From positions 15,867 through 79,866 of IMG/VR virus record IMGVR_UViG_3300036851_000098: a DNA stretch of 64,000 nucleotides. The stretch is one strand, 5' to 3'. Under the pieces are notes generated by a model, which made no database searches, was not told the DNA's origin, and saw only the letters and a program-made list of their open reading frames with translations. The position numbers were made by a program, and so were the translations under genes. Shown here piece by piece: positions 6,401 to 48,803 of the stretch (position 1 is its first letter; the number at the start of each line of letters is the position of its first letter). The stretch comes from a virus.

Positions 6401-7339
6401 GACTTGATCAAAGCTCGCATCGCGATCAAACGTAAAGATTTTGAGGCTGCCTCCTACATGATGGATGGGCGCCTGAAGCCGTTCCTCCTAAACGAGGACG
6501 AAAGCTATGACGTAGAGGGAGCTGACAAGCTTGCCTACGCACTCAAGATCGTGATCAATATTGTTTACGGTCTCACTTCTGCCAAGTTCGATAATCCGTT
6601 CCGCGATATTCGCAACGTCGACAACATCGTCGCCAAACGCGGCGCCTTATTCATGATCGATCTCAAGCACGCCTTGCAAGAGAAGGGCGTCTCGGTTGTG
6701 CACATCAAGACGGACTCTGTCAAGATCCCGGATACTACTCCGGATATCATCAAATTTGTCACAGAGTTCGGTGCCAAGTACGGGTATGACTTCGAGCACG
6801 AAGAGACATATGACCGATTCTGCCTGGTCAACGATGCGGTCTACGTGGCTGGGATTCAGGCAGTGCCTTGGGAAGAGAACTTCCCGAAGTATAAGTGGAC
6901 TGCTGTTGGTGCACAGTTCCAGCACCCTTACGTCTTCAAGACGTTGTTCTCAGAAGAAGATATTTCGTTTGAGGATTATCGAGAGGGTCGTTCTGTCGTC
7001 AAGGGAGCGATGTATCTCGATAAAGCGGAAATGGAAGAGCCTGACTACACCAAGATGCGCCATATTGGCAAGACTGGCCTGTTCGTTCCAGTTCTGTCTG
7101 GTGGCGGAAAGCTTTACCGCGTCAACAAAGATACAGATGCCGAAGGTCACGATATCGAAAAATACTACGCGGTGAGCGGTACTAAGGGCCATCTCTGGAT
7201 GGATGCCGATGAAGCAAGCGAAGCCAACGAGAAGGGCAATCTCGAAATTGACATGTCATATTTCGAGAAATTGAAAGATGACGCCGTCAAGACGATCGAG
7301 AAGTTCGGTAACTTCGACGAATTCATAGGGAGGAAGTGA
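3482..7339 (+). CDS. DNA helicase (SF3/D5-like)-primase-family B DNA polymerase fusion
   Basis: Walker A GPPGTGKS; prim-pol-like DFD...HLHY; exonuclease FFDVE, YN..YD, YCENDV; PolB motifs DVASMHP, KIVINIVYG, IKTDS. Confidence 0.9.
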   Translation: MDFYQILARETKDKNDPRLELYPDFVVGRSEDLMVQGGKFYAIWDEEKGLWSRDEYDVQRLVDEDLRQTRERLEQDTGQKYTVKFMRSFHSNIWAQFRKFMAHISDNSKPLDRKLVFANTEVKKKDYASKKLPYDIGEGDISAWEELTSTLYSPDERAKIEWAIGSIVAGDSKKIQKFLVFYGPPGTGKSTILNIIQQLFEGYTTSFDGKALGSSSSQFATEAFKYNPLVAIQHDGDLSRIEDNARLNSIVAHEEMTMNEKYKPSYSSRIDAMLFLGSNQPVRISDAKSGIIRRLIDIHPTGIKFAPKRYQTLMTQIGFELGAIAHHCHQVYLTMGKNFYNGYRPLEMMLQTDVFFNFIEAYFDVFKKQNYTTLKQAYTMYREYCAESGIERPMPQYKMREELRNYFDEFKDRGEIDGEAVRSLYMGFTAEKFKTPTDDPTQFSLVLEEKTSLLDELLARFPAQLANADGMPTKRWANVTTTLSDIDSRKIHYVKVPEKHVVIDFDLKDQNGHKALERNLEAASHWPATYAEISKSGSGIHLHYNYTGGDVSDLRRDYADGIEVKVYTGDASLRRRLTRCNNVGVAEISSGLPLKDKREPMLKTKTMQSEQGLRDLIQRNLRKEIHPGTKPSVDFIKKVLDDAYESGIQYDVTDLRSRIVAFANNSSNQAQACLKTVNEMRWKSEEAGETKEEAFTSDHNVDVKDDRIAFFDVEVYENLFVICWKFQGSDEVVKMVNPKAHEVAELFSLKLVGFYNRRYDNHILYAAAMGASNAELFTLSKKLVIDNNRSVSFAQAYNLSYADIWEFSSEKKSLKKFEIDLGILHMELDIPWDQPVDEKDWPRVVAYCENDVRATEAVFEDRKGDFTARLILAELSGLTPNDTTQNHTAKIIFGDKVKTANKDFVYTDLSKEFPGYKFELGKSYYKGEEPGEGGYVYAEPGMYSNVAVLDVASMHPMSIIKLNAFGPYTQKFEDLIKARIAIKRKDFEAASYMMDGRLKPFLLNEDESYDVEGADKLAYALKIVINIVYGLTSAKFDNPFRDIRNVDNIVAKRGALFMIDLKHALQEKGVSVVHIKTDSVKIPDTTPDIIKFVTEFGAKYGYDFEHEETYDRFCLVNDAVYVAGIQAVPWEENFPKYKWTAVGAQFQHPYVFKTLFSEEDISFEDYREGRSVVKGAMYLDKAEMEEPDYTKMRHIGKTGLFVPVLSGGGKLYRVNKDTDAEGHDIEKYYAVSGTKGHLWMDADEASEANEKGNLEIDMSYFEKLKDDAVKTIEKFGNFDEFIGRK

Positions 7340-15633: not shown

Positions 15634-16068
15634 TTGAAAGCAGATTTCACCATCACGATTCATACGGGGAGAAAGCCTATGGGAGTACGTGTGATCGTGT
15701 ACGAGAACGTCCGAGCTCTTCGAAGCGCGGCTACGCAGCATGACAACCTATATTGGAATCGCCCAGTACGAGGTAAGCCGAAATACGGAGAGTTCAAAGA
15801 CACTCTCGGAATCTGTCATCGCCATCACTGGGATGGAGATTCTGTCTATGCGATTGTCAGAGTGGCTCCACCAAACATAGGAATAGGAATCATCTCTCAC
15901 GAACTGGCCCACGCTGCGATATGGCTGTGGGCAATCGAGAACAAATTCGACGAGAAAGCACTCACATGTGAAAATGACGAATGGTTCTGCTGGGTGCTGG
16001 GAGAATTAGTGCGAGAAACTGTTAACAAATTCTATGAAATAGGAATCTGGGAAGACAAAAACTCGTAA
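15634..16068 (+). CDS. zincin-like metalloprotein
   Basis: HELAH motif followed by distal E (NDEWFC). Confidence 0.55.
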   Translation: MKADFTITIHTGRKPMGVRVIVYENVRALRSAATQHDNLYWNRPVRGKPKYGEFKDTLGICHRHHWDGDSVYAIVRVAPPNIGIGIISHELAHAAIWLWAIENKFDEKALTCENDEWFCWVLGELVRETVNKFYEIGIWEDKNS

Positions 16069-16166
16069 TTTGCAGGGAGAAAAGGCGCCTTCGGCGCGGA
16101 AATCAACTGCCCTTGCATAAGACACACGGTTCAGATACTGGGATATTTAAAAAGAAAGGAATCGCC

Positions 16167-16416: not shown

Positions 16417-16440
16417 TCGTGGGGTTTCACTGCGCATAAT
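16417..16440 (+). promoter_or_regulatory. phage promoter-like motif P1
   Basis: TCGTG-N5-TCA-N6-ATAAT, matches three other copies. Confidence 0.5.
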
Positions 16441-17890: not shown

Positions 17891-17895
17891 AAGAT

Positions 17896-17928
17896 TCGCG
17901 AAGTTTTCATGGGGTATAATGAGACCCT
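17896..17928 (+). promoter_or_regulatory. phage promoter-like motif P2
   Basis: TCGCG-N6-TCA-N6-ATAATGAGACCCT. Confidence 0.65.
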
Positions 17929-17944
17929 TATTGAAAGGAAAATC

Positions 17945-18162: not shown

Positions 18163-18189
18163 AAGAGAATCTTCACGGATTCTCTTTTT
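18163..18189 (+). terminator. intrinsic terminator
   Basis: aagagaatc/gattctctt stem plus T-run. Confidence 0.75.
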
Positions 18190-18221
18190 CGCGAGATATT
18201 CACGCAGCATAATGAGACCCT
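18189..18221 (+). promoter_or_regulatory. phage promoter-like motif P3
   Basis: TCGCG-N6-TCA-N6-ATAATGAGACCCT. Confidence 0.65.
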
Positions 18222-18246
18222 ATTCATCCTTAACAGGAGACTTGTT

Positions 18247-22904: not shown

Positions 22905-24131
22905 GTGACAGTAATGGGAGAGATTCGAACCGGCGTTAAACTGGCTGAGCATCAGCAGATCGCTCTAGGTAAGTTGAAGGACGGCAATATCCTTTGGGGC
23001 GGCGTCGGTTCGGGTAAGAGTCGAGTTGGTATGGCGTACTATTGCACGACCGAACAAGACGAAGACTTGATCGTCATCACGACGGCCAAGAAGCGTGATT
23101 CTCTGGATTGGGAGACCGAGGCGGCACGATTCGGCGTGGGTAAGGAGAGAGACGCCACTCAGCACGGCACCATTACTGTCGACTCCTGGAACAACATCGA
23201 GAAATACATCGATGTAGAGGGCGCGTTCTTTATTTTCGACGAGCAACGACTGGTGGGAGCGGGTAAGTGGTCGAAGTCGTTTCTTAAGATCGCGAAGCGC
23301 AACCGATGGATCATGTTGTCAGCGACACCAGGAGATACCTGGCTGGATTACATTCCCGTATTCGTGGCAAATGGGTTCTACCGAAATCGCACCGAATTCA
23401 AGCGCGAGCACGTGATCTACCGCCCATTCTCGAAGTATCCCGTAGTGGAGAGATATGTAGGAGTCCAGCGTCTGGTACGTCACCGTAATCAGATACTGGT
23501 GCACATGCCGTATGCAAAGGAGACGACTCGCCACCCAGTTAACATCTGGTGTGAACATGATGAGGTCGCTCTGGCTCGAGTTTCACATGGACTGTGGAAC
23601 ATATTTGAAGAAAAGCCTATCCGAGACAAGGCTGAGCTTTTCCATGTGATGCGCAGGGTTGTAAACTCTGATCCATCCCGTCTAAGGGCTGTCCAAGAAC
23701 TGCTGGACAAACACGACAGGCTGATCGTCTTCTACAGTTTTGACTACGAGCTCGCAATCCTTCGAGAGCTATCTGAATCTTCAAAGCGGGTTTATGCCGA
23801 GTGGAACGGTCACAAGCATGAAGAGATCCCCACGACGGACAAGTGGGTCTACGTGGTTCAGTATGTCGCAGGTGCAGAAGGATGGAATTGCGTCACGACA
23901 AATGCGGTGTGTTTCTACAGTCTGACATATTCGTATAAAATGTGGGAACAAGCCCACGGGCGAATTGACAGGCTCGATACCGACTTCATTGATCTGTATT
24001 ACTACGCGCTCCGGTCGAAGGCTACGATCGACTGGGCCATTTGGCGTTCTTTGAAGTCTAAGAAGTCTTTCCAGACCGAGCACTTCGACATGACAGATGC
24101 CGAGTTTGCGGATTTTTCCTATCAGGAGTAG
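22905..24131 (+). CDS. SF2 DNA helicase
   Basis: GGVGSGKS, FDEQ, LSATPGD, GAEGWN, QAHGRIDR. Confidence 0.88.
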   Translation: MTVMGEIRTGVKLAEHQQIALGKLKDGNILWGGVGSGKSRVGMAYYCTTEQDEDLIVITTAKKRDSLDWETEAARFGVGKERDATQHGTITVDSWNNIEKYIDVEGAFFIFDEQRLVGAGKWSKSFLKIAKRNRWIMLSATPGDTWLDYIPVFVANGFYRNRTEFKREHVIYRPFSKYPVVERYVGVQRLVRHRNQILVHMPYAKETTRHPVNIWCEHDEVALARVSHGLWNIFEEKPIRDKAELFHVMRRVVNSDPSRLRAVQELLDKHDRLIVFYSFDYELAILRELSESSKRVYAEWNGHKHEEIPTTDKWVYVVQYVAGAEGWNCVTTNAVCFYSLTYSYKMWEQAHGRIDRLDTDFIDLYYYALRSKATIDWAIWRSLKSKKSFQTEHFDMTDAEFADFSYQE

Positions 24132-24145
24132 AAAGGTGGCCACGA

Positions 24146-26103
24146 TTGAATAATTGTCTGTGTCTCTGCTCCGCTAACCACCCGGATCAACTCGGTGTCT
24201 GCACGGGCGACCCGACTCGAACGCTTCGGTTCAGCGACTTCCCAAAGGACTCACCTCTTCACGGACTAGATCATGTAGATATACACATGTGTGAATCGTG
24301 TTTTCTAAGAACAACAGCTAGGAGAAAAGATGGAAGCTCTTAGAATCATCCCTGATTTGGAACGTCATGGTATTCGCGACGAGCCGTATAATGTCGTGGA
24401 ATACGATAACGGTCCTATTATCATCGGTGGAATGTCCAAGGGCACCGAGAACGGAAAGCCGGTTGTCATGATCGCTATCGATACTGATGACGGAGATGTC
24501 ATGGTCATTCAGACCACGTTGGCTTTATTCCTCAGTGCTGCCGATGCGCTCAAAGCTTACCATGGTGATCCCAGATAGATGGAGAATCGTCGATGAGCGA
24601 TGAAACCGAGAAGATGAGTCAAGAAGAGTTATTGCGTTGGAACCTGGTTCGAGCCGAGCAGCACGCGTCTCAAGCTTTAGACCTGATCTATGGAAACAAA
24701 GCAGGTGGGATCCGGGTTCCGCGCGGTTTCTGGTGGCGTAGAAGACTACTAGCTGCTCAGAATCATCTAATGACTCTGACAGTAAGAGAATTGAATAAAA
24801 AAGGGTGACAGATGTCTGATCTCGTCTCATTTACTATCGAAGTCGATATGGAGAAACGTTGGGTACCACACTTCCTGGGTATGTTACAGTCAATGGAACA
24901 TCTAGGTCGTCTAGGTTTGTCACGAGCGCTTACGTTCTTCTCAGATGGAGACGGAGACTTCCATCCGCGATTCAAATGGAATATCGAAGCACAACCAATT
25001 CAGCCAGGTGAGGAATATTCATGGGATGCAGGATGAAAGATAGCGGATACGAACAACTCGTCACCAACATACGAACTGAGGCCGATAACCTAAAGGCACA
25101 TCAAGATGCATCCCCCCAGCAAGTGAGAGCTCTTCGGCAATTCGCTGATTTCATCGCAATGGGACGTTGGGGCAACAACAATCGTGAAACGGAGGTGAAA
25201 AATTGCTAGAATATCGCGCTATCGTGCGTTTCGAAGATCGCCATGACACTTGGTCTTTTTCCCCACACGTTACCAAGTGGAATCCAGATCGACAAGCAGC
25301 ACTCATTTACATTGAGATTTACAGAGGTATTCCTTCATATAGGTCAGGTAAGATCGAAAAACGAGAAGTTGGGTTCCCAAAAGACGATGAGCTGTTCCCT
25401 AAGGAGGTGAAAGATGGCAGCAAAGCGACTGAAAACGAAGATAACCCCCGATGATCAGCTAACTGAGTACTTGAAAGTTGCAGAGGAGGCCCTCATAGGG
25501 GCCGTAAAGCTCTTCTCAGAGCATAAAACGCTTAATCGAAGGGTTGGGTACCTAACACGGCTCGTAAGGGCTCAGGAGGGCGTTACGGGCCTTCATAGGG
25601 AGGAATTGGTGCGTGCGCTGGCTACGAAAGGTAGAAAAGGGCGGAAAAAGGCTTAAAAGGGGGTCTAAATCGATGGAAGAGACCATCACAAACCTGGATT
25701 CGTACGTCAATGGCTATAAAGTCGTGTCCTCGGATGAAAAGACGGTTACTTTGGAGGATGGGGTAACCGTTGAGAAGGCGAAATGTGAGTATGTAGGGCG
25801 TTTGTCCGAGTCTGGGGCAACATTGTATCACTGCGATGATCTTAGAGAAGAGGGCGATCAACTGTGATCAAGCTTATATTCCCTCCTGGGTTCCCCCATG
25901 ATCTGGAAGTTCACATCCGGCCAGACTCTATTGAATACTGGAGATGGGGCGGAAAGATCCTGGAGCTCACTCCCCCACAATACGGGATGATTCACAGGGC
26001 TATAGAAGAGAAGCTACGCTCTATAGAGGTGGATCAGCTGTTTGTGCCGTATAAGCCGGAAAAACTCGAAAATCGGGTAGATTCAGATACTGGGATGCCC
26101 TAA
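24146..26103 (+). other. run of small hypothetical genes (24146-24343, 24330-24578, 24593-24808, 24812-25036, 25203-25454, 25414-25656, 25672-25867, 25864-26103)
   Basis: Co-oriented, overlapping or abutting ORFs with SD sites. Confidence 0.55.
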
Positions 26104-26545
26104 AACAAGCTAAAAACGGCTTGCCAAGCTTTTTGCCAAGATTTTCTTTGGCAAGATTTTAATGCTGAATCACCTGCAAATAAGCGGTTTTGTGTTGCGA
26201 AAACGCTTGCCAAGAAATTTCGTAAAAAGTTTTTTAATATTTTACGACTTCAATATCTGATTATACCTATGGTATTCCTTATATATCTACGCGGGCGCGC
26301 GGAAAAATAGGGGGTTCCATACAAGGAATCAGATACTGGGATGCGTTTTTATAAAAACTTTTTGTCCTCAAAATCTTGGCAGACAAATTCGGCCTAAAAA
26401 GTCGCTGTTTGCGGAGAATCCCAGTATCTATTTGGTCTATTTGCCAAGATTTGCCAAGATTTAGGATAATGTGGACCGCGAAAACCCATGCTGTAGGGGT
26501 ACTCTAATATCTGAAAACGGGTGCCAAATCGACAGATATTGACTG
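26084..26545. repeat. putative replication origin: AT-rich region with TTGCCAAG and CAGATAYTG iterons and a ~175-bp imperfect palindrome
   Basis: TTGCCAAG at 26121, 26133, 26207, 26441, 26451 (+) and TGCCAAG at 26375-81 (-); CAGATAYTG-like copies at 26084, 26251(-), 26330, 26418(-), 26533. Confidence 0.65.
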
Positions 26546-26554
26546 AAAGGAAAA

Positions 26555-27475
26555 TTGATGGCTTCATTGGTGAACGCTGAGTTTAGATACTGGAGGACAG
26601 ACACCAAGCGTCACAGTCGGGAAATCTACGCGCTTGTGTACAACGATCCGGCAAAGCCCTCGCCTCATGATCCATTGATCGGGACGATGGAGACTGCCGA
26701 TTTGGCTGAGATCGTGGTGGAAGTACACAACAACGCTATCCGGAAGTACGGAAAGCGGTATCTGAAGGTGCTGCAATCAGATGGATGAAGAGAGATTGGT
26801 TGAGATTCGTGGATTTGCGCTTGATCTTGTCGAAGAACTATTCGCGACTGGTAATTACAACCATCTCGATGGGTACGGCGGCGCCAGTCTCGTTATTGAT
26901 CTCGAAGAAGCTGTGACGGCGCTTCATAAAAAAGGGTGGGCGATCGCTCGAGAGCTCGGGGATGGTTAGTTTTCCTATGCTGAATCATGTGTGGTATTAC
27001 GTGATTCGGAAACCAGATGAAATGTTCAGGTTCATCGATAGGAAGGCAGTCATAACATACTACCGACCATGGCATACTGTTGTCTATCTAGAAGGCGCCT
27101 TTGAGTCGGATGACAAAGAAGAGCTCATGCAAGAGGTGTATCGAGCAGCAGCTTCAAAACTCAACTGAAAGGATTCCTATGATGGTTAGCGATTACACGT
27201 ATGAGGCTTCACGCATGGCGAACTTCGGACGGGACACCGCCAAGGCGCATTCTACATTTACTCGATCGACTGAGAAGTTGGCTGCTGAAATCAACGCCGC
27301 AATCGACAACGGCATCAAGCCTATCAAGGTTGCACACGATGTCATGGGGCGGTGCTCATCAAGAGAGATGCAGATCGAACTTCTGTCATCTTTGATGGCA
27401 TTGGCGCAGATGAACAAGATTCCGCAGTCGGTGGTGGACCCCTTCGAGGGAGGTATCCGTGTTAAACGAGTCTGA
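26555..27475 (+). other. small hypothetical genes (26555-26788, 26781-26969, 26962-27168, about 27179-27475)
   Basis: Coupled ORFs with SD sites. Confidence 0.55.
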
Positions 27476-28586: not shown

Positions 28587-28904
28587 GTGGCTGAGAACGC
28601 CTATCAGCGAAAATTGATCCGTAAGTTGAAGAGAATGTTTCCTGGCTGCGAAATCCTCAAAAACGATTCGCAATATCTTCAAGGAGTGTTGGATCTTACA
28701 ATTTTGTGGGGTCCTTTGTGGGCAATGCTTGAGGTTAAAACGTCTCGTGATGCTCCATTTCGTCCAAATCAAGAGTACTACATCAAGCGGTTTGATGAGA
28801 TGGCGTTTGCGTCTTCTATCTGCCCCGAAGATGAAGAGGAGGTGCTAACTGCGCTTCAACAAGCATTCGCATCTCGAGGGGCAGCATGCGTTCCTCAGTC
28901 CTAG
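28587..28904 (+). CDS. VRR-NUC-like (PD-(D/E)XK) nuclease / resolvase
   Basis: E..YQ.KLI..LK, QG..DL, LEVK, RPNQEYY; AGGAGG SD before GTG 28587. Confidence 0.78.
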   Translation: MAENAYQRKLIRKLKRMFPGCEILKNDSQYLQGVLDLTILWGPLWAMLEVKTSRDAPFRPNQEYYIKRFDEMAFASSICPEDEEEVLTALQQAFASRGAACVPQS

Positions 28905-29409
28905 TTCGTATCACTGGATCAACTACGACGAAGAAAAACTTAGGTTTCGCTATAAGACTCTTCGTGCGGCGCTCGAAGGAATAGAGCAGCATCGCTACGC
29001 AGCGATTTGTATCGCCGAAAGGATTGTCCAAGATGATGAAAGAACAACCCTGGGACTGTACATCAATCAATGCATTCAATACAGAATGCACCCAGAAATT
29101 GTCCTGTTTTATTCTCCTAATGCATTCGGAACAGTTGACGCCATTGCGTATCGATATCGAGTGCTTAGGATCTCAGATCTCAAGACAGGAGCCACTCGAG
29201 TCTCAGAACATCAGCTGGAAGTATATGCAGCGTTTTTCTGTCTCGAGTACGAAATTAGTCCTTTCCACATGAGAGGAATTGAGCTTCGTATTTACAAAGA
29301 CGGCAAAGTACAGGTGTACGATGCTGATCCCCACTACATAAAGGGGCTCATGGATAAGATCGTTCGTTTCGACGGAATTCTCAACATGCTTCGAGAGGAG
29401 GTGTCGTAG
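28849..29409 (+). CDS. Cas4-like/PD-(D/E)XK exonuclease (probable CTG start)
   Basis: Frame open from CTG 28849: (M)RFNKHSHLEGQHAFLSPSSYHWINY...PE..L.YS...FGT.DAI...ISDLKTG...QLEVYAA. Confidence 0.75.
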   Translation: MRFNKHSHLEGQHAFLSPSSYHWINYDEEKLRFRYKTLRAALEGIEQHRYAAICIAERIVQDDERTTLGLYINQCIQYRMHPEIVLFYSPNAFGTVDAIAYRYRVLRISDLKTGATRVSEHQLEVYAAFFCLEYEISPFHMRGIELRIYKDGKVQVYDADPHYIKGLMDKIVRFDGILNMLREEVS

Positions 29410-32273
29410 TGCGCGTTACTGAAGAAGACTACTTGATGCATTACGGCATCAAGCGTAAGTCAGGTCGGTATCCTTGGGGATCTGGTCAGAATCCTCTACA
29501 ACGTTCAAAGACGTTCCTAGGAATAATCGAGCAACACAAGAAAATCGACAAAATGACTGAGTCCGAGATTGCTAGGGCATACTCGGATAATGATCACAAA
29601 CTCAGTGTCGCTGACATTAGAGCAATGAGGTCTATTGCTGGTGCAGAAGTCAAGATGGATCAGATTCGTACTGCCCAACGTCTAAGAGATAAGGGTATGG
29701 GCGCGTCTGCGATTGCAAGGCAGATGGACCTAAACGAGTCTACTGTCCGTTCGCTTCTGGAGCCAGGTAGGCAGGAGAAGTTGGACATTCTCATGAATAC
29801 CGCCGACATGCTCAAGCGGCAGGTCGAAGAAAAGGGTATGATTGACGTCGGTTCAAACGTCAATCTAGATCTTCCGATTGGCGACAATCCTGCCACCCGA
29901 ATCGGAATTAGTCCAGATAAGTTTGCTACTGCTCTTTCCATGCTCAAGGAAGAGGGCTACCAAGTTCATACTTTCAACGCCCCTCAGGTTGGAACTGGAG
30001 AGATGACCAAGTACAAGGTGCTGGTCAAGCCTGGGGTTACGCAGAAAGAAGCTTGGTCCAATCGTGACAACATTCGTCTGATCTCGGAAAAGACCGACGA
30101 TCGTGGCAGAAATTTCACCGATTTTGGTATCCAGCCTCCGTTGAATGTCTCCTCCAAGCGAGTGGGCATCAACTATAAGGAGGATGGTGGTAGTGACGCG
30201 GACGGCGTGATCTATGTTCGTCCTGGTGTCCCTGATATAACGCTTGGTAAATCTCGTTATGCTCAGGTTCGTATTGCGATTGATGGTTCACACTATCTCA
30301 AGGGTATGGCTGTCTACAAAGACAATCTACCCCCTGGCATGGATCTTCAGTTCAATACGAACAAGTCCAACACGGGCAATAAGCGTGACGCTATGAAACC
30401 CCTGAAGAGGGACCCTCAAACGGGTGAGGTCGATAAGGATAACCCATTTGGTGCCGTCATCAAGAAGGATGGCCAGATCCTAGATAAGAATGGGAAAGTC
30501 AAGTCGGCGATGAATCTCATCAACGAAGAGGGTGATTGGGATACATGGTCAAGAAACTTGTCCAGTCAGGTTCTCTCGAAGCAGAAGCCTGAACTAATTA
30601 AGACCCAATTGGATCTTACTCATGATCGGCGTAGAGCTGAGCTTGAAGAAATTCGCTCGCTCACTAACCCGCAGATCAAGAGAAAGCTTCTCGAAACTTT
30701 CGCTGAAGAGACTGATGCTGCAGCTGTGCATCTCAAAGCAGCAGCTATGCCTAATCAGGCTACTAAAGTCATTCTTCCGTCGAACAAAGTAAAGCCTAAT
30801 GAGATCTTTGCTCCTACTTTCAGGGATGGAGACAAGGTTGCTCTTGTGCGATTCCCTCATGCGGGAACGTTCGAGATTCCAGAACTGACTGTTAACAACA
30901 AGTCACGTGAAGCAAAGGCTCTAGTTGGACTGAACAAGGGTGGGACAGCAAGAGACGCTGTAGTCATTCACCCCAAGGTAGCAGAGAGACTATCTGGTGC
31001 TGACTTTGATGGCGACGCTGTCGTTGTCATTCCAAACAATCGTGGGCGGATTACCCATAAGCCCCCGTTGGAGGGACTTAAGGGATTTGATCCTCAAAGC
31101 GAATTTGCTCCCTATCATGGTATGAAGACCATTGATGGAGGAACGTACAACGCTACTACAAAGAAGATCGAATACCCTAAGGACAAGGACGGTAACGAAC
31201 GCAGTCCCAACAAGTCGAGAAAACAGCATGAGATGGGTAACGTTACCAACCTAATCTCTGACATGACCATTCGTGGTGCTAACAACGACGAGATAGCTCG
31301 TGCAGTGAAGCACTCTATGGTGGTTATCGATTCTGAGAAGCATGTTCTCGACTTCAAGGCTTCGGAGAGAATCAACGGAATCACAGCTCTTAAGAAGAAG
31401 TATCAAGGCGTGCACCCTAAGACAGGGCAAGCACGTGGTGCTTCTACGATCATTACTCGTGCTACTGCACAGACTCATCCTGTACAAAGGAAGGACGCAT
31501 CAGCTGGTCCTGGCAGAACTAGGATCTCTAGTGGTACGGTTGACAATCGTACAGGTAAGAAGCTGTATGAACCTACGGGTAAGCGTAAGCGTGACGGTAG
31601 TCTAGCTACGTTTAAGTCTCAGAAGTTGGCTGAGACAGATGATGCCTTTGAGTTGGTGTCAAAAGGTAGGGGCACTACGGAAGAACAGCTCTATGCTGAG
31701 CATTCTAATCGGCTTAAGGCTATGGCCAATGAGGTACGTAAAGAACTAATCCGTATCAAGCCCATCCCCTACTCGCCCTCAGCCAACAAGGTGTACAAGC
31801 ATGAAGTGGATTCGCTTACAGCGAAATTGCGTAAGGCTGAAAAGAACGCCCCCCTCGAACGGCAGGCCCAGGCTGTAGCCAGGCGGATCGTTGCGGATCG
31901 TAAACGCGCAAACCCAGGGATGGAGAAGGACGAGGAGCGGAAGATCAAAGGTCAGGCGTTGACCGAAGCTCGACGTAGAACAGGAGCGGGTAAAGTACGC
32001 CTAGGTTCTGATGAATCCCCCATTACTGATCGTGAGTGGGAAGCTATTCAGAATGGTGCGATCTCGAATCACATGTTGGATAACATCTTGAAGAACTCTA
32101 ACATAGACAAGATCCGTGAGCGCGCAACACCTAGAGAGAAGCCTGTGATGAGTAATGTCATGACAGCTAGGGCCAGGCAGATGATTGCGTCTGGGTACCC
32201 ATTGTCGGTCATTGCTGAGCAACTGGACATTCCTGTGTCCACCCTTAAGTCTGGGCTTGAGGATGGGGGGTGA
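29409..32273 (+). CDS. single-subunit two-barrel (YonO/QDE-1-like) RNA polymerase with N- and C-terminal HTH
   Basis: DG..Y...AQVRI...YLKGMAV; LVRFPH; LSGADFDGD (30996-31016); MGNVTN; VIDSEKH; HTH motifs SAIARQMDLNESTVR and SVIAEQLDIPVSTL. Confidence 0.8.
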   Translation: MRVTEEDYLMHYGIKRKSGRYPWGSGQNPLQRSKTFLGIIEQHKKIDKMTESEIARAYSDNDHKLSVADIRAMRSIAGAEVKMDQIRTAQRLRDKGMGASAIARQMDLNESTVRSLLEPGRQEKLDILMNTADMLKRQVEEKGMIDVGSNVNLDLPIGDNPATRIGISPDKFATALSMLKEEGYQVHTFNAPQVGTGEMTKYKVLVKPGVTQKEAWSNRDNIRLISEKTDDRGRNFTDFGIQPPLNVSSKRVGINYKEDGGSDADGVIYVRPGVPDITLGKSRYAQVRIAIDGSHYLKGMAVYKDNLPPGMDLQFNTNKSNTGNKRDAMKPLKRDPQTGEVDKDNPFGAVIKKDGQILDKNGKVKSAMNLINEEGDWDTWSRNLSSQVLSKQKPELIKTQLDLTHDRRRAELEEIRSLTNPQIKRKLLETFAEETDAAAVHLKAAAMPNQATKVILPSNKVKPNEIFAPTFRDGDKVALVRFPHAGTFEIPELTVNNKSREAKALVGLNKGGTARDAVVIHPKVAERLSGADFDGDAVVVIPNNRGRITHKPPLEGLKGFDPQSEFAPYHGMKTIDGGTYNATTKKIEYPKDKDGNERSPNKSRKQHEMGNVTNLISDMTIRGANNDEIARAVKHSMVVIDSEKHVLDFKASERINGITALKKKYQGVHPKTGQARGASTIITRATAQTHPVQRKDASAGPGRTRISSGTVDNRTGKKLYEPTGKRKRDGSLATFKSQKLAETDDAFELVSKGRGTTEEQLYAEHSNRLKAMANEVRKELIRIKPIPYSPSANKVYKHEVDSLTAKLRKAEKNAPLERQAQAVARRIVADRKRANPGMEKDEERKIKGQALTEARRRTGAGKVRLGSDESPITDREWEAIQNGAISNHMLDNILKNSNIDKIRERATPREKPVMSNVMTARARQMIASGYPLSVIAEQLDIPVSTLKSGLEDGG

Positions 32274-32277
32274 AACA

Positions 32278-32568
32278 GTGGCTCACGAACCTGAATACAT
32301 GTTGACAACGGTAGACAACCCATTTGATCCTTGGACACAGTGGGATGAATGGTTCGCTTACGATCAGAATTCTGGGTACAATACCCCCGGCCTCCTGGCC
32401 AGGGTAGCTCTTGCCTCTAACGAATTAGCTGAAGTGGATCAAGATCATGCTATCCAGACAGCTATCCAAGAGATCGTGCGCGAGAATGTTTCTGGTGTTC
32501 ATACGAAAGTGAAAGAAGGAGAAGTACAAACACTTTCTAATCAGAACGAATCTGAGACCGAGGCATAA
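32278..32568 (+). CDS. conserved phage hypothetical protein
   Basis: MLTTVDNPFDP.TQ.DEW..YD...GY.T...LAR. Confidence 0.75.
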   Translation: MAHEPEYMLTTVDNPFDPWTQWDEWFAYDQNSGYNTPGLLARVALASNELAEVDQDHAIQTAIQEIVRENVSGVHTKVKEGEVQTLSNQNESETEA

Positions 32569-32910
32569 GGTTTATGTTAAATCTCAGGTATAGAAATTAG
32601 GTATCTCACATGAGTGAAGCACGACCCCCCTACCTCCACCTACCATGGATAGATAGTTAAAGAAAAACTTTTTCATACATGTTCTTTTCTTTTTTTTTGT
32701 AAAAGATTAGAAAAGAAATTTTTAGAACGGGTAGGGGGGAGGGGTCAAAAAAATTTAACCCCCCGTGTGCATCGCTCGGCTCCCAAAAATATCCCCGGGG
32801 GGATTTTTTCTGGGAACAATCTGGTATGGTACCCGGCATAAACCCCTTGGTAAGCGCGAAGAAGCCTTACTCATCAGTTCGAAACATAGTGCAAAAATTT
32901 TCAGATAAGA
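32569..32910. other. putative genome-end / packaging (cos-like) region
   Basis: 340-bp non-coding stretch with T/A and G/C homopolymer tracts between the RNAP block and the start of the virion/lysis genes. Confidence 0.4.
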
Positions 32911-32922
32911 AAGGAGGCACCG

Positions 32923-35403: not shown

Positions 35404-35784
35404 TTGACCAACGCACGGCCGAACACAAAGTTCTTGGACAATCTTGACGAGGCTACTCTTCGCCAAGTGTGTAGCAGGCTAGATGCGCTTGAACCTTATA
35501 TTGCGGAGCATCGAGATCTTGTCAAACGTCGCCGTGCGTTGGAGATTCGCCTGGGCAAAATTTCAAAGTCGGATCGAGTGCGACAACTTCTTGCTCATCA
35601 TCCTAATGGGCTTACACGAGCAGTGATAGGAGATAAACTTGACATAACAGTCGGACTGTCGGGAGTGTTGGGTGAACTTAAACGACAAGGGCATATCGAT
35701 CAGCCTGGGAAAGGACTCTATCGGCTCACTGACCTTGGCCATCAGGCCACGAGTTCAATGGTGGTTAACCAAAACGCAACCTAA
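35404..35784 (+). CDS. winged-helix DNA-binding protein
   Basis: AGGAG SD before TTG; coiled coil then HP.GLT...I...L......G.L.ELK.QG.I....G.Y.LT. Confidence 0.6.
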   Translation: MTNARPNTKFLDNLDEATLRQVCSRLDALEPYIAEHRDLVKRRRALEIRLGKISKSDRVRQLLAHHPNGLTRAVIGDKLDITVGLSGVLGELKRQGHIDQPGKGLYRLTDLGHQATSSMVVNQNAT

Positions 35785-36418
35785 TCGACAAGATCATGAA
35801 GATCTTGTAAGCGCGGTGATGATTCAGCTTTTAGAGGCTGAAGTAAGATTTACCGGTACTCCAGAAACTTGGCCAGCATATGCTTGGCCTAGAATCAAAG
35901 GCACTATTCTTGACGAAATTCGTAAAACTAAACCAAGAGGGTTTCGTCGACGGCGACACGATGATACACCTGTGATCGTGTCTATTAACGAATTCATTGG
36001 GGAAACCGATCAGACTCTAAGCGATACGATTCCTGATATAAAAGCGATCATCGATCATGATCCGGTCGCAGAACAGAAATTTGCTGATGCTATCTCCGCA
36101 CTTTCTGTTAACGAACGGGTTGTGGTTGAGTTAATGATTGACCAGGATCTGTCATCAGCCGATATAGCAAAAGTCCTTGGCGTAACTAATGGGCGAGTAA
36201 GTCAGATGGCGAAAGCTATTCGACATCAACTAGTAGAGAGTCTTGCGCACCCAATGCTACGCAAGGAGGCTCTTTGTTCTCTACGCTCTGAAAGCTTTCT
36301 CCGTGATCGAGTCCGGAGTGGTCACAGCGTAAGAGAGATAGCAGACGAACTAGGTGTAGCTCGAACCAGCGTTCGAGAATGGATGAGGCTATACCAAATT
36401 CAACCAGTCAATCGCTGA
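35672..36418 (+). CDS. sigma-70 family factor (FliA/WhiG-like) with extra C-terminal HTH
   Basis: EDLVS....LLEA..F; AYA.PRIKG.ILDEIR; L...ER.V.......L...DIA.VLGVT..RVSQ. Confidence 0.82.
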   Translation: MNLNDKGISISLGKDSIGSLTLAIRPRVQWWLTKTQPNRQDHEDLVSAVMIQLLEAEVRFTGTPETWPAYAWPRIKGTILDEIRKTKPRGFRRRRHDDTPVIVSINEFIGETDQTLSDTIPDIKAIIDHDPVAEQKFADAISALSVNERVVVELMIDQDLSSADIAKVLGVTNGRVSQMAKAIRHQLVESLAHPMLRKEALCSLRSESFLRDRVRSGHSVREIADELGVARTSVREWMRLYQIQPVNR

Positions 36419-39261: not shown

Positions 39262-39687
39262 ATGGAACAGAGCATTCTAAAGAGTACCAAGAAGTATGTG
39301 GGTCTTGATCCTGAAAACACAGCATTCGATCTTGACATCCTCACCCTTATTAACTCGGCGTTCTCCACCATCCACGATCTGGGTGTGGGTCCTGATAGTG
39401 GCTTCGCTATCGAAGACGAAGAAACGGTGTGGCAGGATTTTCTTGATGAGGACCCCGTGCAGCTTGGGCATATCAAAATCGTCGTCTGGACTCGGACACG
39501 GCTGGGATTTGATCCTCCTACTCAGCAATTCCTTATCGAGGCAATCAACAAGCAGCGTGAGGAAGCTGAGTGGCGACTCAACACGAACCGCGAAGCAGTC
39601 GCGTGGGTCGATCCTGATCCGGCTGATGTCGTAGATGAAGACGAATTGGTCGTCCTCGACGGCGGCGACGCGGAGGATTCACCATGA
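39262..39687 (+). CDS. head-to-tail connector/adaptor
   Basis: SIL.STKK..G......FD.DI...INSAF..I..LGVGP..GF.I; RL.FDPP; EWRL. Confidence 0.75.
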   Translation: MEQSILKSTKKYVGLDPENTAFDLDILTLINSAFSTIHDLGVGPDSGFAIEDEETVWQDFLDEDPVQLGHIKIVVWTRTRLGFDPPTQQFLIEAINKQREEAEWRLNTNREAVAWVDPDPADVVDEDELVVLDGGDAEDSP

Positions 39688-42512
39688 GTCGAATCGTTTT
39701 CAAGCTTCGACGAGATTTCGCCGCAGATTGGACTGCGGCAAATCCTGTCCTTTCTGATGGCGAGCCTGGATTGGAGATCGATACCGGGAATCTGAAGGTC
39801 GGCGATGGAATCACCGCTTGGAATGAGCTGGATTATTTTGTCGAAGCAGGATCGGTTGGGCCAGCAGGCCCGGCAGGTCCCGAAGGCCCGGCAGGTCCCG
39901 AAGGCCCGGCAGGTCCCGAAGGCCCTGCAGGCGCCGATGGCGCAGATGGCGCACCTGGTCCGGCAGGTCCAGCTGGTGAACCGGGTTCAGCAGGAGCTGA
40001 TGGCGAAGACGGTGCCACAGGTCCGCAGGGCGCAACTGGCCCCGCAGGGCCGCAGGGTGTTGAAGGACCGCAAGGCGGGCAGGGGCCTCAGGGTGCTGAC
40101 GGCACTTCCTTCATTTACCAAGGTGAATGGAACAATACCGATACATACAATCCTCTTGATGTTGTTCGCAGTCCAATTTCTTTTGATACGTATATTGCAG
40201 TTCAAGAGAATACTGGAGTAAACCCCGACACCGATACGACGAACACGTATTGGGATCCGATTGCTATTGAAGGCGTTATGGGTCCCGAAGGCCCGCAAGG
40301 TGAGCAGGGGGCAACCGGTCCTGCGGGTCCTCAAGGTATTCAGGGGATTCAGGGTGAGCAAGGCGAAACTGGTCCTGCTGGTCCCGAAGGCCCCGAAGGT
40401 CCCGAAGGACCTCAGGGTGAGACCGGCCCTATGGGCCTACCCTCTCCTGGTGCTGTGTTGTTCTTCGAAACGTTCGACGTGGATCTTTCCAACTATTCAC
40501 AGCCCTCACGGGGTGCTGTGTCTGGTGGATTGTTCAACGCGGTTACGCCGTTCAATGTGGACACTGTTATGTCAACAGTGCTCAAGTTCCCGTACGGCGT
40601 CATCATGCATGAAATCAAGTATGTAATCGGTTCGGGTGGCACCACTCCTAATGGCGTTGGCGTCATGCTTCGATATCTTGACGATAACAACTACGTCTTC
40701 GTCAGGCATGAGTATATTGCCAACCGTCTTGGTGTGTACAGGAAAATTGGCGGCGCTTCGCCCGCACTTGTTGGTCGAATCAATGTTGCGGCGACGGCTG
40801 TCGGAGCTACTCGTTGGCTGAGAGCTTGGCTAACGCCAGATGGCTATGCGCATGCTGCACTATTTTCTTCTGACCCCAACGTCGATACTCCTCCGGATCC
40901 AATCTCGGTTACCTCAGAACAGGGAACGGTTCTCAGTTCGAACGCCACGTTTGGCGCTATGCGCAACGATTTGGCGGCTGGTCTATATTTCAATCTGCCT
41001 TCGGCTACGACGAAGATCGACCATCATAAGGTCTACGTTGCATCTCGCGGGCCTAAGGGTGACACTGGTTCTACGGGAGTAACTGGTGCTACTGGGGCTA
41101 CCGGAGCAACTGGTGCCACTGGGGCTACCGGACCTGCCGGGCCGACTGGTGCTGAGGGCGATTCGGCCTATGAGGTTGCTGTCGCGAATGGGTTTGTGGG
41201 AACTGAGGAAGACTGGCTCGAGTCGTTGGGCGGTATCCAAGGTCCTGCGGGCGAAGATGGTTCGACATGGCATTCTGGAACAGGCGCTCCTTCTGGGGCT
41301 ATCCATGATGTCGGCGATTGGTATCTGGATGATTCCAATGGCAATGTCTATGAGAAAACTGGTGCTTCTTCGTGGACGCTTCGAGATAATTTGACAGGTC
41401 CACAGGGTATTCAGGGTATTCAGGGTGATCCTGGTGAAGGTGGAAGCGCCGCTGTTTGGCGTTCTGGTACAGGAGCTCCTTCGGGTGCTCTCGGTAATAT
41501 CGGCGACTGGTATCTGGATGATGCTAATGGCGATGTATATGAAAAGACCGGATCGTCCACTTACACGCTTCGTGACAACATTATGGGGCCCGCTGGTGCT
41601 GATGGTACTATTGGTGCCGATGGCGCGGATGGATCAGTTTGGCGTTCGGGTTCCGGAGCTCCTTCGGGAGCTCTAGGAGTAATTGGTGATTGGTATCTTG
41701 ACACCGCTAATGGCGATGTGTATGAGAAGACTGGTTCTTCTACTTACACTCTGCGTGATAACCTTACTGGCCCAGCTGGTGCAGATGGAACTGACGGGTC
41801 GGTTTGGCGATCTGGTACTGGTGCACCTTCTGGTGCGTTAGGTGTAATTGGAGACTGGTATCTGAACGACGCTAACGGAGATGTTTACGAGAAGACTGGC
41901 TCTTCTACGTATACTCTGCGTGACAACCTTACTGGTCCTACGGGTGCGGCTGGTGCCGATGGCGCTGACGGAGCCGATGGATCGCCTGGCGCAGCCGGTG
42001 CGGATGGTGTTGATGGATCAGTTTGGCGTTCGGGTTCCGGAGCTCCTTCGGGAGCTCTGGGGGTGATTGGCGATTGGTATCTTGACACCGCTAATGGCGA
42101 TGTGTATGAGAAGACTGGTTCTTCTACTTATACACTTCGAACCAATATTACTGGGCCGCAAGGTCCTGCTGCATCAAACGTCTATTACCACACGTTTAAT
42201 TTCACAGTCATGGGCACTGTGGCTGATGGAATCACAGTTCCTGATGTTCGTATTAGGTTGGCGACGGGACAGACAGCTCGTCTAATTGTTGTGGAAGCGA
42301 ATATTGTTACCGGCTCTATCACCATTCAACCGCGTATCAATGGTTCTAATGCAGGCTCTTCGTTCTCCACCGATTCGGATGCAGCTTGGGAAACGAGTGC
42401 AACATTGAACACCTCGCTATCTGATGGTGATGTGCTCGATTTTACAACCGCTTCTGGTGCATCTTCTCCGGCGAACCTGACTGTCGCATTTGTGGTGGAG
42501 TATACGATCTAA
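39684..42512 (+). CDS. collagen-like fibre/minor tail protein with five ~45-aa repeats
   Basis: N-terminal RR..A..W...NPVL..GEPG.E.DT...KVGDG...W; Gly-X-Y tracts; W.SG.GAPSGA.G.IGDWYL....GDVYEKT repeats. Confidence 0.88.
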   Translation: MSRIVFKLRRDFAADWTAANPVLSDGEPGLEIDTGNLKVGDGITAWNELDYFVEAGSVGPAGPAGPEGPAGPEGPAGPEGPAGADGADGAPGPAGPAGEPGSAGADGEDGATGPQGATGPAGPQGVEGPQGGQGPQGADGTSFIYQGEWNNTDTYNPLDVVRSPISFDTYIAVQENTGVNPDTDTTNTYWDPIAIEGVMGPEGPQGEQGATGPAGPQGIQGIQGEQGETGPAGPEGPEGPEGPQGETGPMGLPSPGAVLFFETFDVDLSNYSQPSRGAVSGGLFNAVTPFNVDTVMSTVLKFPYGVIMHEIKYVIGSGGTTPNGVGVMLRYLDDNNYVFVRHEYIANRLGVYRKIGGASPALVGRINVAATAVGATRWLRAWLTPDGYAHAALFSSDPNVDTPPDPISVTSEQGTVLSSNATFGAMRNDLAAGLYFNLPSATTKIDHHKVYVASRGPKGDTGSTGVTGATGATGATGATGATGPAGPTGAEGDSAYEVAVANGFVGTEEDWLESLGGIQGPAGEDGSTWHSGTGAPSGAIHDVGDWYLDDSNGNVYEKTGASSWTLRDNLTGPQGIQGIQGDPGEGGSAAVWRSGTGAPSGALGNIGDWYLDDANGDVYEKTGSSTYTLRDNIMGPAGADGTIGADGADGSVWRSGSGAPSGALGVIGDWYLDTANGDVYEKTGSSTYTLRDNLTGPAGADGTDGSVWRSGTGAPSGALGVIGDWYLNDANGDVYEKTGSSTYTLRDNLTGPTGAAGADGADGADGSPGAAGADGVDGSVWRSGSGAPSGALGVIGDWYLDTANGDVYEKTGSSTYTLRTNITGPQGPAASNVYYHTFNFTVMGTVADGITVPDVRIRLATGQTARLIVVEANIVTGSITIQPRINGSNAGSSFSTDSDAAWETSATLNTSLSDGDVLDFTTASGASSPANLTVAFVVEYTI

Positions 42513-43905: not shown

Positions 43906-45114
43906 ATGGGTAGTAATCTTGTCGTAGTGGCTATCCCCGATGAGAACGATCGTGTATGGAAGGTCTCGAGCGAAAAGATTCCTCATCTCACCGTCCTCTT
44001 CCTGGGTGATGTGGACGAGGTTTCAAATCTCGATCAGATCGTCCAGTTCGTGGAGCATGCGGCCGAGCAGACGCTGCGGCGGTTCTATCTTCCGGTGGAC
44101 CGTCGCGGTGAGCTTGGCGCCGACAAAGCGGACGTTCTCTTTTTCAAGAAGGGACGTTACGACTTCAAGGCGATTCGAGACTTCCGAACGGCGCTTCTTC
44201 AGGACAGCAACATCAGGAAAGCGTACGATTCTACAACACAATTCGAAACGCCGCCTGCGGTTGGTTCTCCTGGGCAGTCCTGGATCCCTCATCTGACTCT
44301 CGGCTATCCGACGTCGCCAGCCAAGCCTGAGAAGGGAGATCAGTATCCCGGATTCTACGACGTCTGCTTCCACAAGATCGCTGTGTGGGTGGGAGATTAC
44401 GAGGGCTCCGAGTTTCTGTTGAAGGATCAGTGGGAAGAGATGGAGCTAGCTGAGGTTGCGCCAATGGACGTAGCTATGAGCGATCTGGTAAGTCGGAATC
44501 AGGCTCGTATTGCTCTCGGCCTTAAGGAGATCGAAGCCGAGCTCGAACACTATGGCGTGAAGGGTATGCGTTGGGGACAGCGTAGGTCGGAGCGTCAGCT
44601 TGCTGTGGCTCAGAAGCGAAGGAATGACGCTAAGACTCTGGAAGAAGCTGCTGCTCGTAGAGGCGAAGGGGCTACTCGTGGAATCCTTGAGCGACTCGCT
44701 GCTCAAGAGCGAAGCGGAGCGCTTAAGCTTGAAGCCAAAGCTAGGTCAAGACAAGAGAAATTGGCTGAGAAAACGGCTACAGTAGAGCCTACCGCTAAGT
44801 CTGTTGTTCCTCCTGGGTCGAAGCGTAAGACTAAAATCGATGTTGAAGGTGGAGAAAATCATCCGGCTACGGAAGACGCGCTTAACGTAGCTAAGGCTCA
44901 AGTTAAATTGCAAAAGAGTGGTGCTGCTGCTCTCTCTAATAAAGAGCTTCGTGAAGTTGCTAATCGGCTGCAACTAGAGCAACAAGTCAAGCAGCTGTCT
45001 ACGTCTGGTGGACGTAAGTTTGTAACTAACCTGTTGAGAGAACAGGGCAAGCAACAGACTCAAAGTCTTATCAACGAGCAGATCAGAGACTTGCGGCGTC
45101 GCCAGGCAGCATAA
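43906..45114 (+). CDS. 2H phosphoesterase fused to HYGVKGMRWG head-associated domain
   Basis: Two HxT motifs (PHLTVLFLG, PHLTLGY); ELEHYGVKGMRWG; LSN.EL.....RLQLEQ. Confidence 0.78.
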   Translation: MGSNLVVVAIPDENDRVWKVSSEKIPHLTVLFLGDVDEVSNLDQIVQFVEHAAEQTLRRFYLPVDRRGELGADKADVLFFKKGRYDFKAIRDFRTALLQDSNIRKAYDSTTQFETPPAVGSPGQSWIPHLTLGYPTSPAKPEKGDQYPGFYDVCFHKIAVWVGDYEGSEFLLKDQWEEMELAEVAPMDVAMSDLVSRNQARIALGLKEIEAELEHYGVKGMRWGQRRSERQLAVAQKRRNDAKTLEEAAARRGEGATRGILERLAAQERSGALKLEAKARSRQEKLAEKTATVEPTAKSVVPPGSKRKTKIDVEGGENHPATEDALNVAKAQVKLQKSGAAALSNKELREVANRLQLEQQVKQLSTSGGRKFVTNLLREQGKQQTQSLINEQIRDLRRRQAA

Positions 45115-48368: not shown

Positions 48369-48803
48369 ATGAGGGAAAAACCCTTCGCGTCTCCTGGAGA
48401 GGCGCTTGCTCATATTTCGGAGACACCTTGGAGCGCGTATTCCAAGTCGGATTACACTCTTGAGCAATGGCATGCTGCGTGTTTGATCCATATTCATGAT
48501 GGAGAGGTCACGTCCAAGAGCGAGTGTAAGTTACCGGTCAAGACGCCTGATGGGGTTCTGAATCGCAACGGTGTACATGCTGCCGCAGCAGCTCTAGCAG
48601 GAGCTCGAGGCGGGCTTAAGAATGTGTCTAAGGAACAAAGAGAGAAAGCAGCAGCTGCTCTACGGAGGTACTACTCTCAGCTGGATGAGGATCCTCCAGA
48701 ATCGCTGGCTGAGCATGGCGCGGTTAAGGGCAATATTCTTAAACAGTCTTTTGCATCGCCTAAGGAGGCGTTAGAACACTATGGCGTTAAGGTCACGCGC
48801 TGA
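48369..48803 (+). CDS. head-associated protein (KLP..PDG.LN.NGV.AA domain) with decayed C-terminal tag
   Basis: FASP.EAL.H occurs twice; ends EHYGVKVTR*. Confidence 0.65.
   Translation: MREKPFASPGEALAHISETPWSAYSKSDYTLEQWHAACLIHIHDGEVTSKSECKLPVKTPDGVLNRNGVHAAAAALAGARGGLKNVSKEQREKAAAALRRYYSQLDEDPPESLAEHGAVKGNILKQSFASPKEALEHYGVKVTR

Follow-up and report, generated by a model that had tools for sequence, protein, structure and literature searches.

Identification of a predicted two-barrel RNA polymerase in a soil phage

We analysed a gene from IMG/VR virus record IMGVR_UViG_3300036851_000098, a 79,866-bp contig that is judged 100% complete and whose sole listed sequencing run is a soil metagenome. 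The window under study comprises 64,000 nucleotides (positions 15,867 to 79,866 of the record), and positions given below are those of the window unless stated otherwise. Within it, an open reading frame (ORF) at 29409..32273 on the plus strand, with a GTG start, encodes a 954-amino-acid protein of the PHROG 4291 family. On the strength of its structural model this protein almost certainly adopts the fold of a single-chain RNA polymerase (RNAP) with two double-psi beta-barrels, and it carries helix-turn-helix (HTH) modules toward both of its ends. An earlier note, made from the sequence alone, had listed a series of polymerase motifs in this frame, and indeed all of them are present in the order given: D265-G266, Q286-V-R288...K298-G-M300, R481-F-P483, L528-SGADFDGD-536, M609-G..T613-N614 and V639-I-D641..K644. 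In an alignment of 64 representative homologues (42-62% identity), the invariant positions are Q286, R288, K298, G299, R481, P483, S529-G-A-D532, D534-G-D536, M609, G610, N614, D641, K644 and H645. Such invariance lies far beyond chance expectation.

The earlier note had also expected the protein to be annotated only as an HTH protein, and this holds for most of the 250 phage records and for the metagenome sources, which describe an HTH DNA-binding protein or transcriptional regulator. Most databases label it in this way because the Pfam RNA-dependent RNA polymerase (RdRP) model, PF05183, remains below threshold (14.4 against a gathering cut-off of 23.8 bits, E 0.015, residues 523-648 only) and HTH models alone pass, among them HTH_7 at residues 82-113 (E 6.5e-7, above cut-off). 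The 250 records were recovered by tblastn and hold full-length homologues with 34-52% identity over 99-100% of the length, from phages of Arthrobacter, Gordonia, Streptomyces, Lactococcus (1706-like), Curtobacterium, Rhodococcus, Microbacterium and Faecalibacterium and also from gut viromes; an exhaustive search at E <= 1e-3 extended the family to 2,091 clusters at 50% identity. The PHROG 4291 profile covers the protein at full length (E=0, 1173 bits, residues 3-952 against profile positions 6-907/909). PHROGs and RefSeq name this family 'RNA-dependent RNA polymerase', on account of the sub-threshold Pfam similarity.

The family is already known computationally, as PHROG 4291, as orf75 of Lactococcus phage 1706 and as the signature gene described by Koert et al. 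in 2021. These authors designated an 'HTH domain-containing protein' as the signature gene of an actinophage supercluster and of a Lactococcus/Faecalibacterium group, and noted its HHpred match to Pfam RdRP, its DxDGD loop and its HTHs at either end (bioRxiv 10.1101/842583). The orf75 product and the actinophage 'HTH DNA-binding domain protein' share the family, the N-terminal leader described below, the HTHs and the catalytic motifs. The protein studied here is at most 52% identical to any cultured-phage protein, and its 1706 homologue is 34% identical overall. To this known family the present analysis adds a candidate promoter, a leader shared with the head module, and hints of a location in the virion. 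Our literature search did not find the promoter strings, the leader strings or the term 'DUF7211', and the supplements of PMC10770324 do not name the family.

The prevailing annotation, together with the fact that only HTH domains pass Pfam thresholds, would be consistent with a regulator that binds DNA and whose polymerase-like core is devoid of catalytic activity. All catalytic motifs, the three aspartates included, are invariant across the 64 homologues and identical in 1706 at 34% identity; a dead core would not be so conserved, and we give this explanation almost no credence.

Predicted fold and domain organization

An AlphaFold2 model computed with the 64-sequence alignment reached a predicted local distance difference test score (pLDDT) of 86 and a predicted template modelling score (pTM) of 0.78. 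When the PDB was searched with Foldseek, QDE-1 ranked first (E 3e-9), followed by RDR2, P74-26 gp62, P32 gp64, P23-45 gp96, crAss gp66 (among weaker matches) and the beta-prime subunits of multisubunit polymerases. Structure comparison by VIA-align, which is independent of Foldseek, gave Z 15.4 for QDE-1 with 383 residues aligned to residues 242-780 of the model, Z 13.7 for P74-26 gp62, Z 13.6 for RDR2 and Z 9.9 for gp96. The QDE-1, gp62 and RDR2 alignments start at residues 242-244 and cover both barrels. The largest subunits of cellular and viral RNAPs matched residues 441-765 at Z 9-10, and isolated or designed double-psi beta-barrels matched residues 444-553 at Z 8-9 with a root-mean-square deviation of about 2 Å. 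The identification of a compact single-chain two-barrel RNAP, as first proposed from the letters alone, is thus supported by the top fold matches, all of which are two-barrel RNAPs. Sequence searches of the PDB with the protein alone or with the 64-sequence profile found HTH look-alikes only and no polymerase.

The second, beta-prime-like barrel (residues 444-553, 30738..31067, plus strand) is clear in the model and contains R481-x-P483. The loop D532-F-D534-G-D536 (31002..31016, plus strand), which sits within this barrel, is a putative Mg-binding catalytic loop; it is invariant in the 64 homologues and identical in six cultured or uncultured phages. The first, beta-like barrel (residues 240-395, 30126..30593, plus strand), with Q286-V-R288 and K298-G-M300, is less secure. 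Folded alone from 51 homologues it again reached pLDDT 86, and its top matches were QDE-1, RDR2, gp64 and classic double-psi beta-barrel proteins, all of them insignificant (Z <= 3.5, E >= 0.065), which counts against the two-barrel reading. Support for this barrel therefore comes from the full-length alignments. Both of the barrels that had been predicted are accordingly supported, the second in its own right and the first by the full-length alignments and by its invariant basic residues R288 and K298. Past the barrels lie helices 602-666 (31212..31406, plus strand; model helices 602-621 and 626-645), which bear the invariant residues of M609-G..N614 and D641..K644-H645. They are possibly bridge-helix-like, to judge from their position in the model, and the QDE-1 and gp62 alignments extend over them.

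The core is flanked by candidate DNA-binding modules, as had also been predicted. An N-terminal helical region (residues 36-142, 29514..29834, plus strand), recognized from the model helices and from Pfam, includes HTH_7, and the recognition helix of its HTH, E-S-(S/T)-V-R, is kept in six phages including 1706. A winged-helix-like domain (residues 143-225, 29835..30083, plus strand) follows, for which VIA-align found TFIIIC extended winged-helix domains at Z 7-8 over residues 119-222. At the other end, the model shows two C-terminal HTH modules (residues 874-954, 32028..32270, plus strand); an HTH match in the PDB profile search falls here, and the DNA-binding domains of Tc3 transposase and GcrA match residues 908-954 at Z about 7.

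Comparison with characterised polymerases

The earlier note had likened the protein to both QDE-1 and YonO of phage SPbeta. The first likeness stands as the top fold match. By sequence, the enzyme lies outside the YonO family and outside Pfam RdRP alike. Comparison of the 64-sequence profile with YonO alone by hhalign gave no relevant match, and comparison with a 26-sequence YonO alignment returned 27 columns around R-x-P-H at a probability of 1.1%. What the two have in common is that each is a siphovirus single-chain two-barrel RNAP with an R-x-P-H ... D-x-D-G-D arrangement; unlike the soil-phage enzyme, YonO reads FDNDGD in its loop and is devoid of terminal HTHs and of a leader. In the Bacillus prophage SPbeta, YonO is a proven processive DNA-dependent RNAP of the late operon, its gene lies directly upstream of the late genes, and its promoter is unknown (PMC5467207).

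The best structural matches, QDE-1 and RDR2 (PDB 7y7p, 2j7n, 7w84; 373 residues aligned for RDR2), extend over both barrels and the following helices, but are only 11-14% identical to the soil-phage enzyme. QDE-1 and RDR2 are eukaryotic RNA-silencing polymerases whose templates are mainly RNA or single-stranded, and they lack HTH modules. Among phage enzymes, P74-26 gp62 aligns over 362 of its 592 residues; the Thermus phage enzymes share 14-16% identity with the soil-phage enzyme and lack both HTH flanks and leader. P23-45 gp64 and P74-26 gp62 are non-virion compact single-chain two-barrel RNAPs of the QDE-1 major clade, and P23-45 gp96 is a virion RNAP fused to the tape measure, so that virion delivery is possible for such an enzyme in a siphovirus (PMC10770324). 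In contrast to the tape-measure fusion of gp96, the soil-phage enzyme is free, and only in rare relatives does a fusion partner occur, either a 2H enzyme or a portal domain.

With QDE-1 as best structural match, a family name of 'RNA-dependent RNA polymerase', and a gene that ends the replication module beside helicase, VRR-Nuc and exonuclease genes, the protein might act as a QDE-1-like RNA-templated polymerase on phage RNAs, or might make replication primers at the origin. The name stems from a sub-threshold similarity, however, and the characterised phage relatives of the fold (YonO; P23-45 gp64 and gp96) are DNA-dependent. Moreover, the presence of three or four DNA-binding modules in the same chain suggests that the targets are double-stranded DNA, and the DNA polymerase gene already has a primase-like domain. 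We consider such a role highly improbable, and in agreement with the earlier note, which had called an RNA-templated function unsupported, nothing was found in its favour.

A candidate tripartite promoter in the early region

Counting of k-mers in intergenic DNA brought out TAATGAGACCCT, which belongs to a three-block element. In this phage it reads TTCGCG, exactly 14 nucleotides, TATAAT and then GAGACCC, with a middle block TTCAyG. A position weight matrix built from seven strict copies found 13 sites at 14 bits or more, all on the plus strand (shuffle maximum 16.7); they lie between 4.4 and 15.1 kb and between 33.8 and 34.1 kb of the genome, and the final pair falls inside the window, at 17891..17930 (plus strand; 44.6 bits) and 18184..18223 (plus strand; 50.4 bits). 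In the window each copy is followed by one small gene and then by a hairpin with a T-run, as seen for the copy at 17891, where a small gene and a terminator follow.

The element recurs in cultured relatives, where the architecture is TCGCA, about 5 nucleotides, TTACACG, about 3 nucleotides and TATAAT-GAGACCCC; it thus differs from that of this phage in its middle block (TTACACG rather than TTCAyG) and in its first block (TCGCA rather than TCGCG). Gordonia phage Gill, Arthrobacter phage Gordon and Streptomyces phage HazuAndZazu have 9-11 copies each, and ReqiPepy6 has at least 3 in the part scanned. These copies are always on the coding strand, directly past the tail genes and ahead of small genes. 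In Lactococcus phage 1706 a variant with CACA, TTTACA and TATAGT-AGAAAG occurs 11 times, each time on the same strand. A foreign matrix, made from 32 sites of Gill, Gordon, HazuAndZazu and ReqiPepy6 only, recovered nine sites at 20-32 bits on this genome (shuffle maximum 11.5) and scored the two in-window copies at 32.5 and 25.0 bits, respectively. Gene and promoter co-occur in phages of five host genera as well as in this phage. In HazuAndZazu, at 26.1-30.7 kb, each small early gene forms a separate cassette of tripartite promoter, gene and a sequence-conserved hairpin of ACCCC, loop and GGGGTTTGGGTTTCG; this conserved hairpin hints at a dedicated termination signal.

Several candidates were set aside in this search. 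Weak promoter variants at 16417 and 28501 fell below the matrix thresholds, and a hairpin in the promoter spacer was dropped after inspection by eye, the pairing being inconsistent among copies. The idea of a 'chicken-and-egg' arrangement, with the polymerase gene served only by its own promoter, was likewise rejected, since each in-window promoter leads to one gene and a terminator.

By its spacing the tripartite element is not a sigma70-type promoter. A sigma70 site was taken to require -35 and -10 hexamers 16-18 nucleotides apart, and in this phage and five others the upstream block stands exactly 14 nucleotides from TATAAT, a distance that does not fit, with no TTGACA-like block at the canonical distance. 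In a consensus scan, sigma70-like sites around the polymerase gene were depleted (12, with 21 expected from shuffles). This phage does encode a sigma-like protein of 248 amino acids (35672-36418), with Sigma70 region 2, region 4 and an extra C-terminal HTH, whose gene lies between the polymerase and lysis genes. It has no homologue in five related phages and therefore cannot be the conserved reader of the promoter; it may, in this phage alone, guide the polymerase of the host to a different class of genes. By comparison, the recognition helices in the HTHs of the phage polymerase are conserved across six phages in parallel with the promoter blocks. This comparative pattern leads us to infer that the polymerase itself could read the tripartite promoter.

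A leader shared with head-module proteins

Near its N-terminus the polymerase has a conserved leader, L-x-H-Y-G-x-x-R-x-S-G-R-Y-P-W-G-S-G (residues 9-26, 29433..29486, plus strand), in a stretch predicted to be disordered (pLDDT < 50 at residues 12-34). In the 64-sequence alignment G13, S18, G19, R20, G24 and G26 are invariant, and H11 and Y21 nearly so. The leader matches Pfam DUF7211 weakly (E 0.006 to 0.001) and is a derived form of it. DUF7211 matches are found in the head module of each of five relatives, with 2-9 apiece, and 5-9 genes that lie between terminase and portal in each relative share the leader. The correspondence is particularly clear in ReqiPepy6, in which seven consecutive genes between terminase and portal begin D-D-F-L-A-H-Y-G-V-K-G-M-K-W-G and the polymerase begins D-E-D-D-Y-L-A-H-Y-G-I-L-R-R-S-G-R-Y-P-W-G. 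The original 1706 record assigns the label 'structural protein' to both of its leader-bearing products, orf7 and orf75 (the counterpart of the polymerase), and the ReqiPepy6 record repeats this label.

Two other proteins of the soil phage carry the leader or a part of it. Just upstream of the large terminase gene, 43906..45114 (plus strand) encodes a 402-amino-acid protein with 2H (LigT-like) phosphoesterase matches, an internal leader E-H-Y-G-V-K-G-M-R-W-G (DUF7211 at residues 208-229, E 1.8e-11) and a C-terminal domain; it may be a virion-delivered phosphodiesterase. Its Gordonia-phage relatives lie between terminase and portal and are labelled 'RNA ligase'. Directly upstream of the portal gene, 48369..48803 (plus strand) encodes a 144-amino-acid protein that ends A-L-E-H-Y-G-V-K-V-T-R, the first half of the leader. 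The nucleotides of this half recur at 44527 and 51738.

Fused forms of the polymerase also occur among the relatives. In P0140 and P0144, which represent two clusters, a 2H phosphoesterase is joined exactly at the leader and is followed by the full enzyme. P0179, a protein of 1,789 amino acids, consists of a Pfam portal domain (E 3e-29), about 650 residues of unknown character and the polymerase core, the core here being without the leader, the N-terminal HTHs and the last HTH. Three further long forms were found, namely P0192 and P0393, which have about 1,050 unknown residues before the core and share parts of the N-terminal region of P0179 without its portal domain, and P0394, of 2,020 amino acids. 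A search of IMG/VR with the portal-fused form returned ordinary-length relatives only.

Virion-resident polymerases are known from other phages. The gp66 protein of crAss-like phage phi14:2 and the virion RNAP (vRNAP) of N4 travel inside the capsid, are injected into the cell and there transcribe early genes from promoters specific to the phage. With about 2,200 amino acids, gp66 has the two-barrel architecture, and N4 vRNAP is a T7-like enzyme of about 3,500; both come from podoviruses. By analogy, they offer a working model for virion delivery, and members of the soil-phage family may reside in virions as well. Taken together, the promoter, the leader and these virion hints suggest a virion-delivered early transcriptase.

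Gene order and the genome end

Nearly all genes of the phage lie on one strand. Tail genes and many small genes are followed by those for DNA primase/polymerase (3482-7339) and helicase (22905-24131), then HNH endonuclease, a VRR-Nuc-like nuclease, an exonuclease, the polymerase, an 87-amino-acid protein (phrog_4303) and a 354-nucleotide non-coding stretch. Beyond this stretch come a peptidase, the sigma-like gene, endolysins, tail fibre, large terminase, portal, a capsid-protease fusion, major tail and tape measure. Cultured relatives resemble this phage in the order VRR-Nuc, exonuclease, polymerase, small gene and genome end, and in their promoter architecture; this phage differs in its larger genome (79.9 kb), its probable soil-metagenome source (about 50% G+C) and its sigma-like protein, which the relatives lack.

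The 354 nucleotides at 32569..32922 are AT-rich and contain both C- and G-runs, as well as a CCCCGGGGGG hairpin that leads into a T-run. The block of VRR-Nuc, exonuclease, polymerase and small gene stands at the extreme right of the linear genome in cultured relatives, with the cos end 300-560 bp past the polymerase gene, and ReqiPepy6 has an annotated 3' cos overhang. Since the genome ends of the relatives lie just past the polymerase gene, 32569-32922 is probably the physical end (cos) region here too.

This arrangement bears on a second account of the enzyme, in which a non-virion transcriptase in the manner of YonO would be made from the replication-module transcript and would transcribe the late structural and lysis genes after circularisation, the promoters being read by host RNAP or another factor. 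The gene order is as in SPbeta, where yonO lies directly upstream of its late operon, and once the ends are joined the polymerase gene is followed on the same strand by peptidase, lysis, tail-fibre, terminase, portal and capsid genes; the TATAAT block, moreover, resembles a sigma-A -10 element. Against this, no phage-specific motif was seen to recur in front of the late genes, and the sole strongly conserved promoter-like element belongs to the early region, where it is conserved across phages of Actinobacteria and Lactococcus with a 14-nucleotide spacing unfit for sigma70. The 'structural protein' label of the 1706 homologue and the leader common to head-module proteins likewise speak for a different role. 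We regard late transcription by a non-virion enzyme as unlikely, if still deserving of real weight.

Immediately downstream of the polymerase gene, 32305..32568 (plus strand) encodes the 87-amino-acid phrog_4303 protein (E 2e-30), which starts M-L-T-T-V-D-N-P-F-D-P. Its gene occupies the position directly 3' of the polymerase gene in 42 IMG/VR loci and five cultured phages. The protein has an invariant N-terminal motif, M-L-T-T-x-D-N-P-x-x-P ... W ... D ... G-Y, and matches no known family beyond phrog_4303. A predicted complex with residues 36-948 of the polymerase scored ipSAE 0.00, which is evidence neither way.

On the upstream side, the exonuclease frame (28849-29409) is open from 28849, just past a TAA at 28846-48, and contains no ATG, GTG or TTG before 29086; its alignment with Gordonia phage Gill gp92 covers residues 2-178 of that protein at 48% identity. 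Either the gene uses a non-canonical start (CTG at 28849) or it continues the VRR-Nuc frame that precedes it. Farther upstream, TTGCCAAGA is repeated five or six times in a 450-nucleotide non-coding region within 26050-26600, and GAtTCAGATACTGGGAT occurs there at 26080, at 26326 and, inverted, near 26440; one more copy, at 16128, immediately precedes a gene. The repeats of 26050-26600 resemble an origin or, alternatively, regulatory sites of a second class. The tail-fibre gene (39684-42512, 942 amino acids) has long collagen-like G-x-y repeats and five tandem units of about 184 nucleotides, which is not unusual in phages of this sort. Rfam and tRNA scans of the 64-kb window were empty.

Discussion

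We propose that the protein is a sigma-free, single-chain, DNA-dependent phage transcriptase that reads the tripartite promoter, a statement that we favour as a whole with moderate confidence. Catalytic activity, a DNA template, promoter reading and timing are what we infer from the data presented herein. The two double-psi beta-barrels (about residues 240-395 and 444-553) would form the active site, in which D532, D534 and D536 would hold the catalytic Mg. The N-terminal HTH and winged helix, together with the two C-terminal HTHs, would most likely replace a sigma factor and read the promoter, that is TCGCr, about 5 nucleotides, TTCAyG or TTACACG, about 3 nucleotides and TATAAT-GAGACCC. This promoter would head at least 12 early-region cassettes, each made up of promoter, small gene and terminator. 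The enzyme would be made late, loaded into the capsid by way of its conserved N-terminal leader and injected with the DNA, and would then transcribe the early cassettes without host RNAP. We advance this last part tentatively: that the polymerase is capsid cargo, loaded by its leader and injected to fire about a dozen tripartite cassettes independently of host RNAP, seems to us about evenly balanced, with doubt slightly ahead.

Several points, in addition to the insignificant scores of the isolated first barrel, weigh against this proposal. Our literature search found no biochemical or transcript data for any member of the family. The TATAAT block is a perfect sigma-A -10 element, so that host RNAP with an unknown factor could read the promoters, and the co-occurrence of gene and promoter could reflect mere shared ancestry of the phages. 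The in-window promoters serve one gene and a terminator each, and no promoter is assigned to the replication genes or to the polymerase gene. On the side of the virion, 1706 orf75 owes its 'structural protein' label to a database annotation, and the portal fusion P0179 is a single predicted protein from one contig. Neither the leader nor the N-terminal HTHs nor the last HTH is present in the fused forms of about 1800 amino acids; therefore, these HTHs are not indispensable to every relative.

The polymerase belongs to a very large family (at least 2,091 clusters at 50% identity) that is almost always annotated as a plain HTH protein. If active, its members would be among the smallest self-sufficient relatives of cellular RNAP, with promoter recognition in the same chain, which would bear on the evolution of multisubunit polymerases and provide a possible orthogonal transcription tool for Actinobacteria. 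The proposed promoter, of roughly 38 bp, is a ready template for in vitro tests in cultured relatives. If virion delivery is true, the family would constitute a widespread sigma-free early transcription system of siphoviruses, in phages of Actinobacteria and Firmicutes. Similarly, if the leader does mark cargo, it would identify a whole set of injected proteins, and among them would be a 2H phosphoesterase, which might counter the defence signalling of the host.

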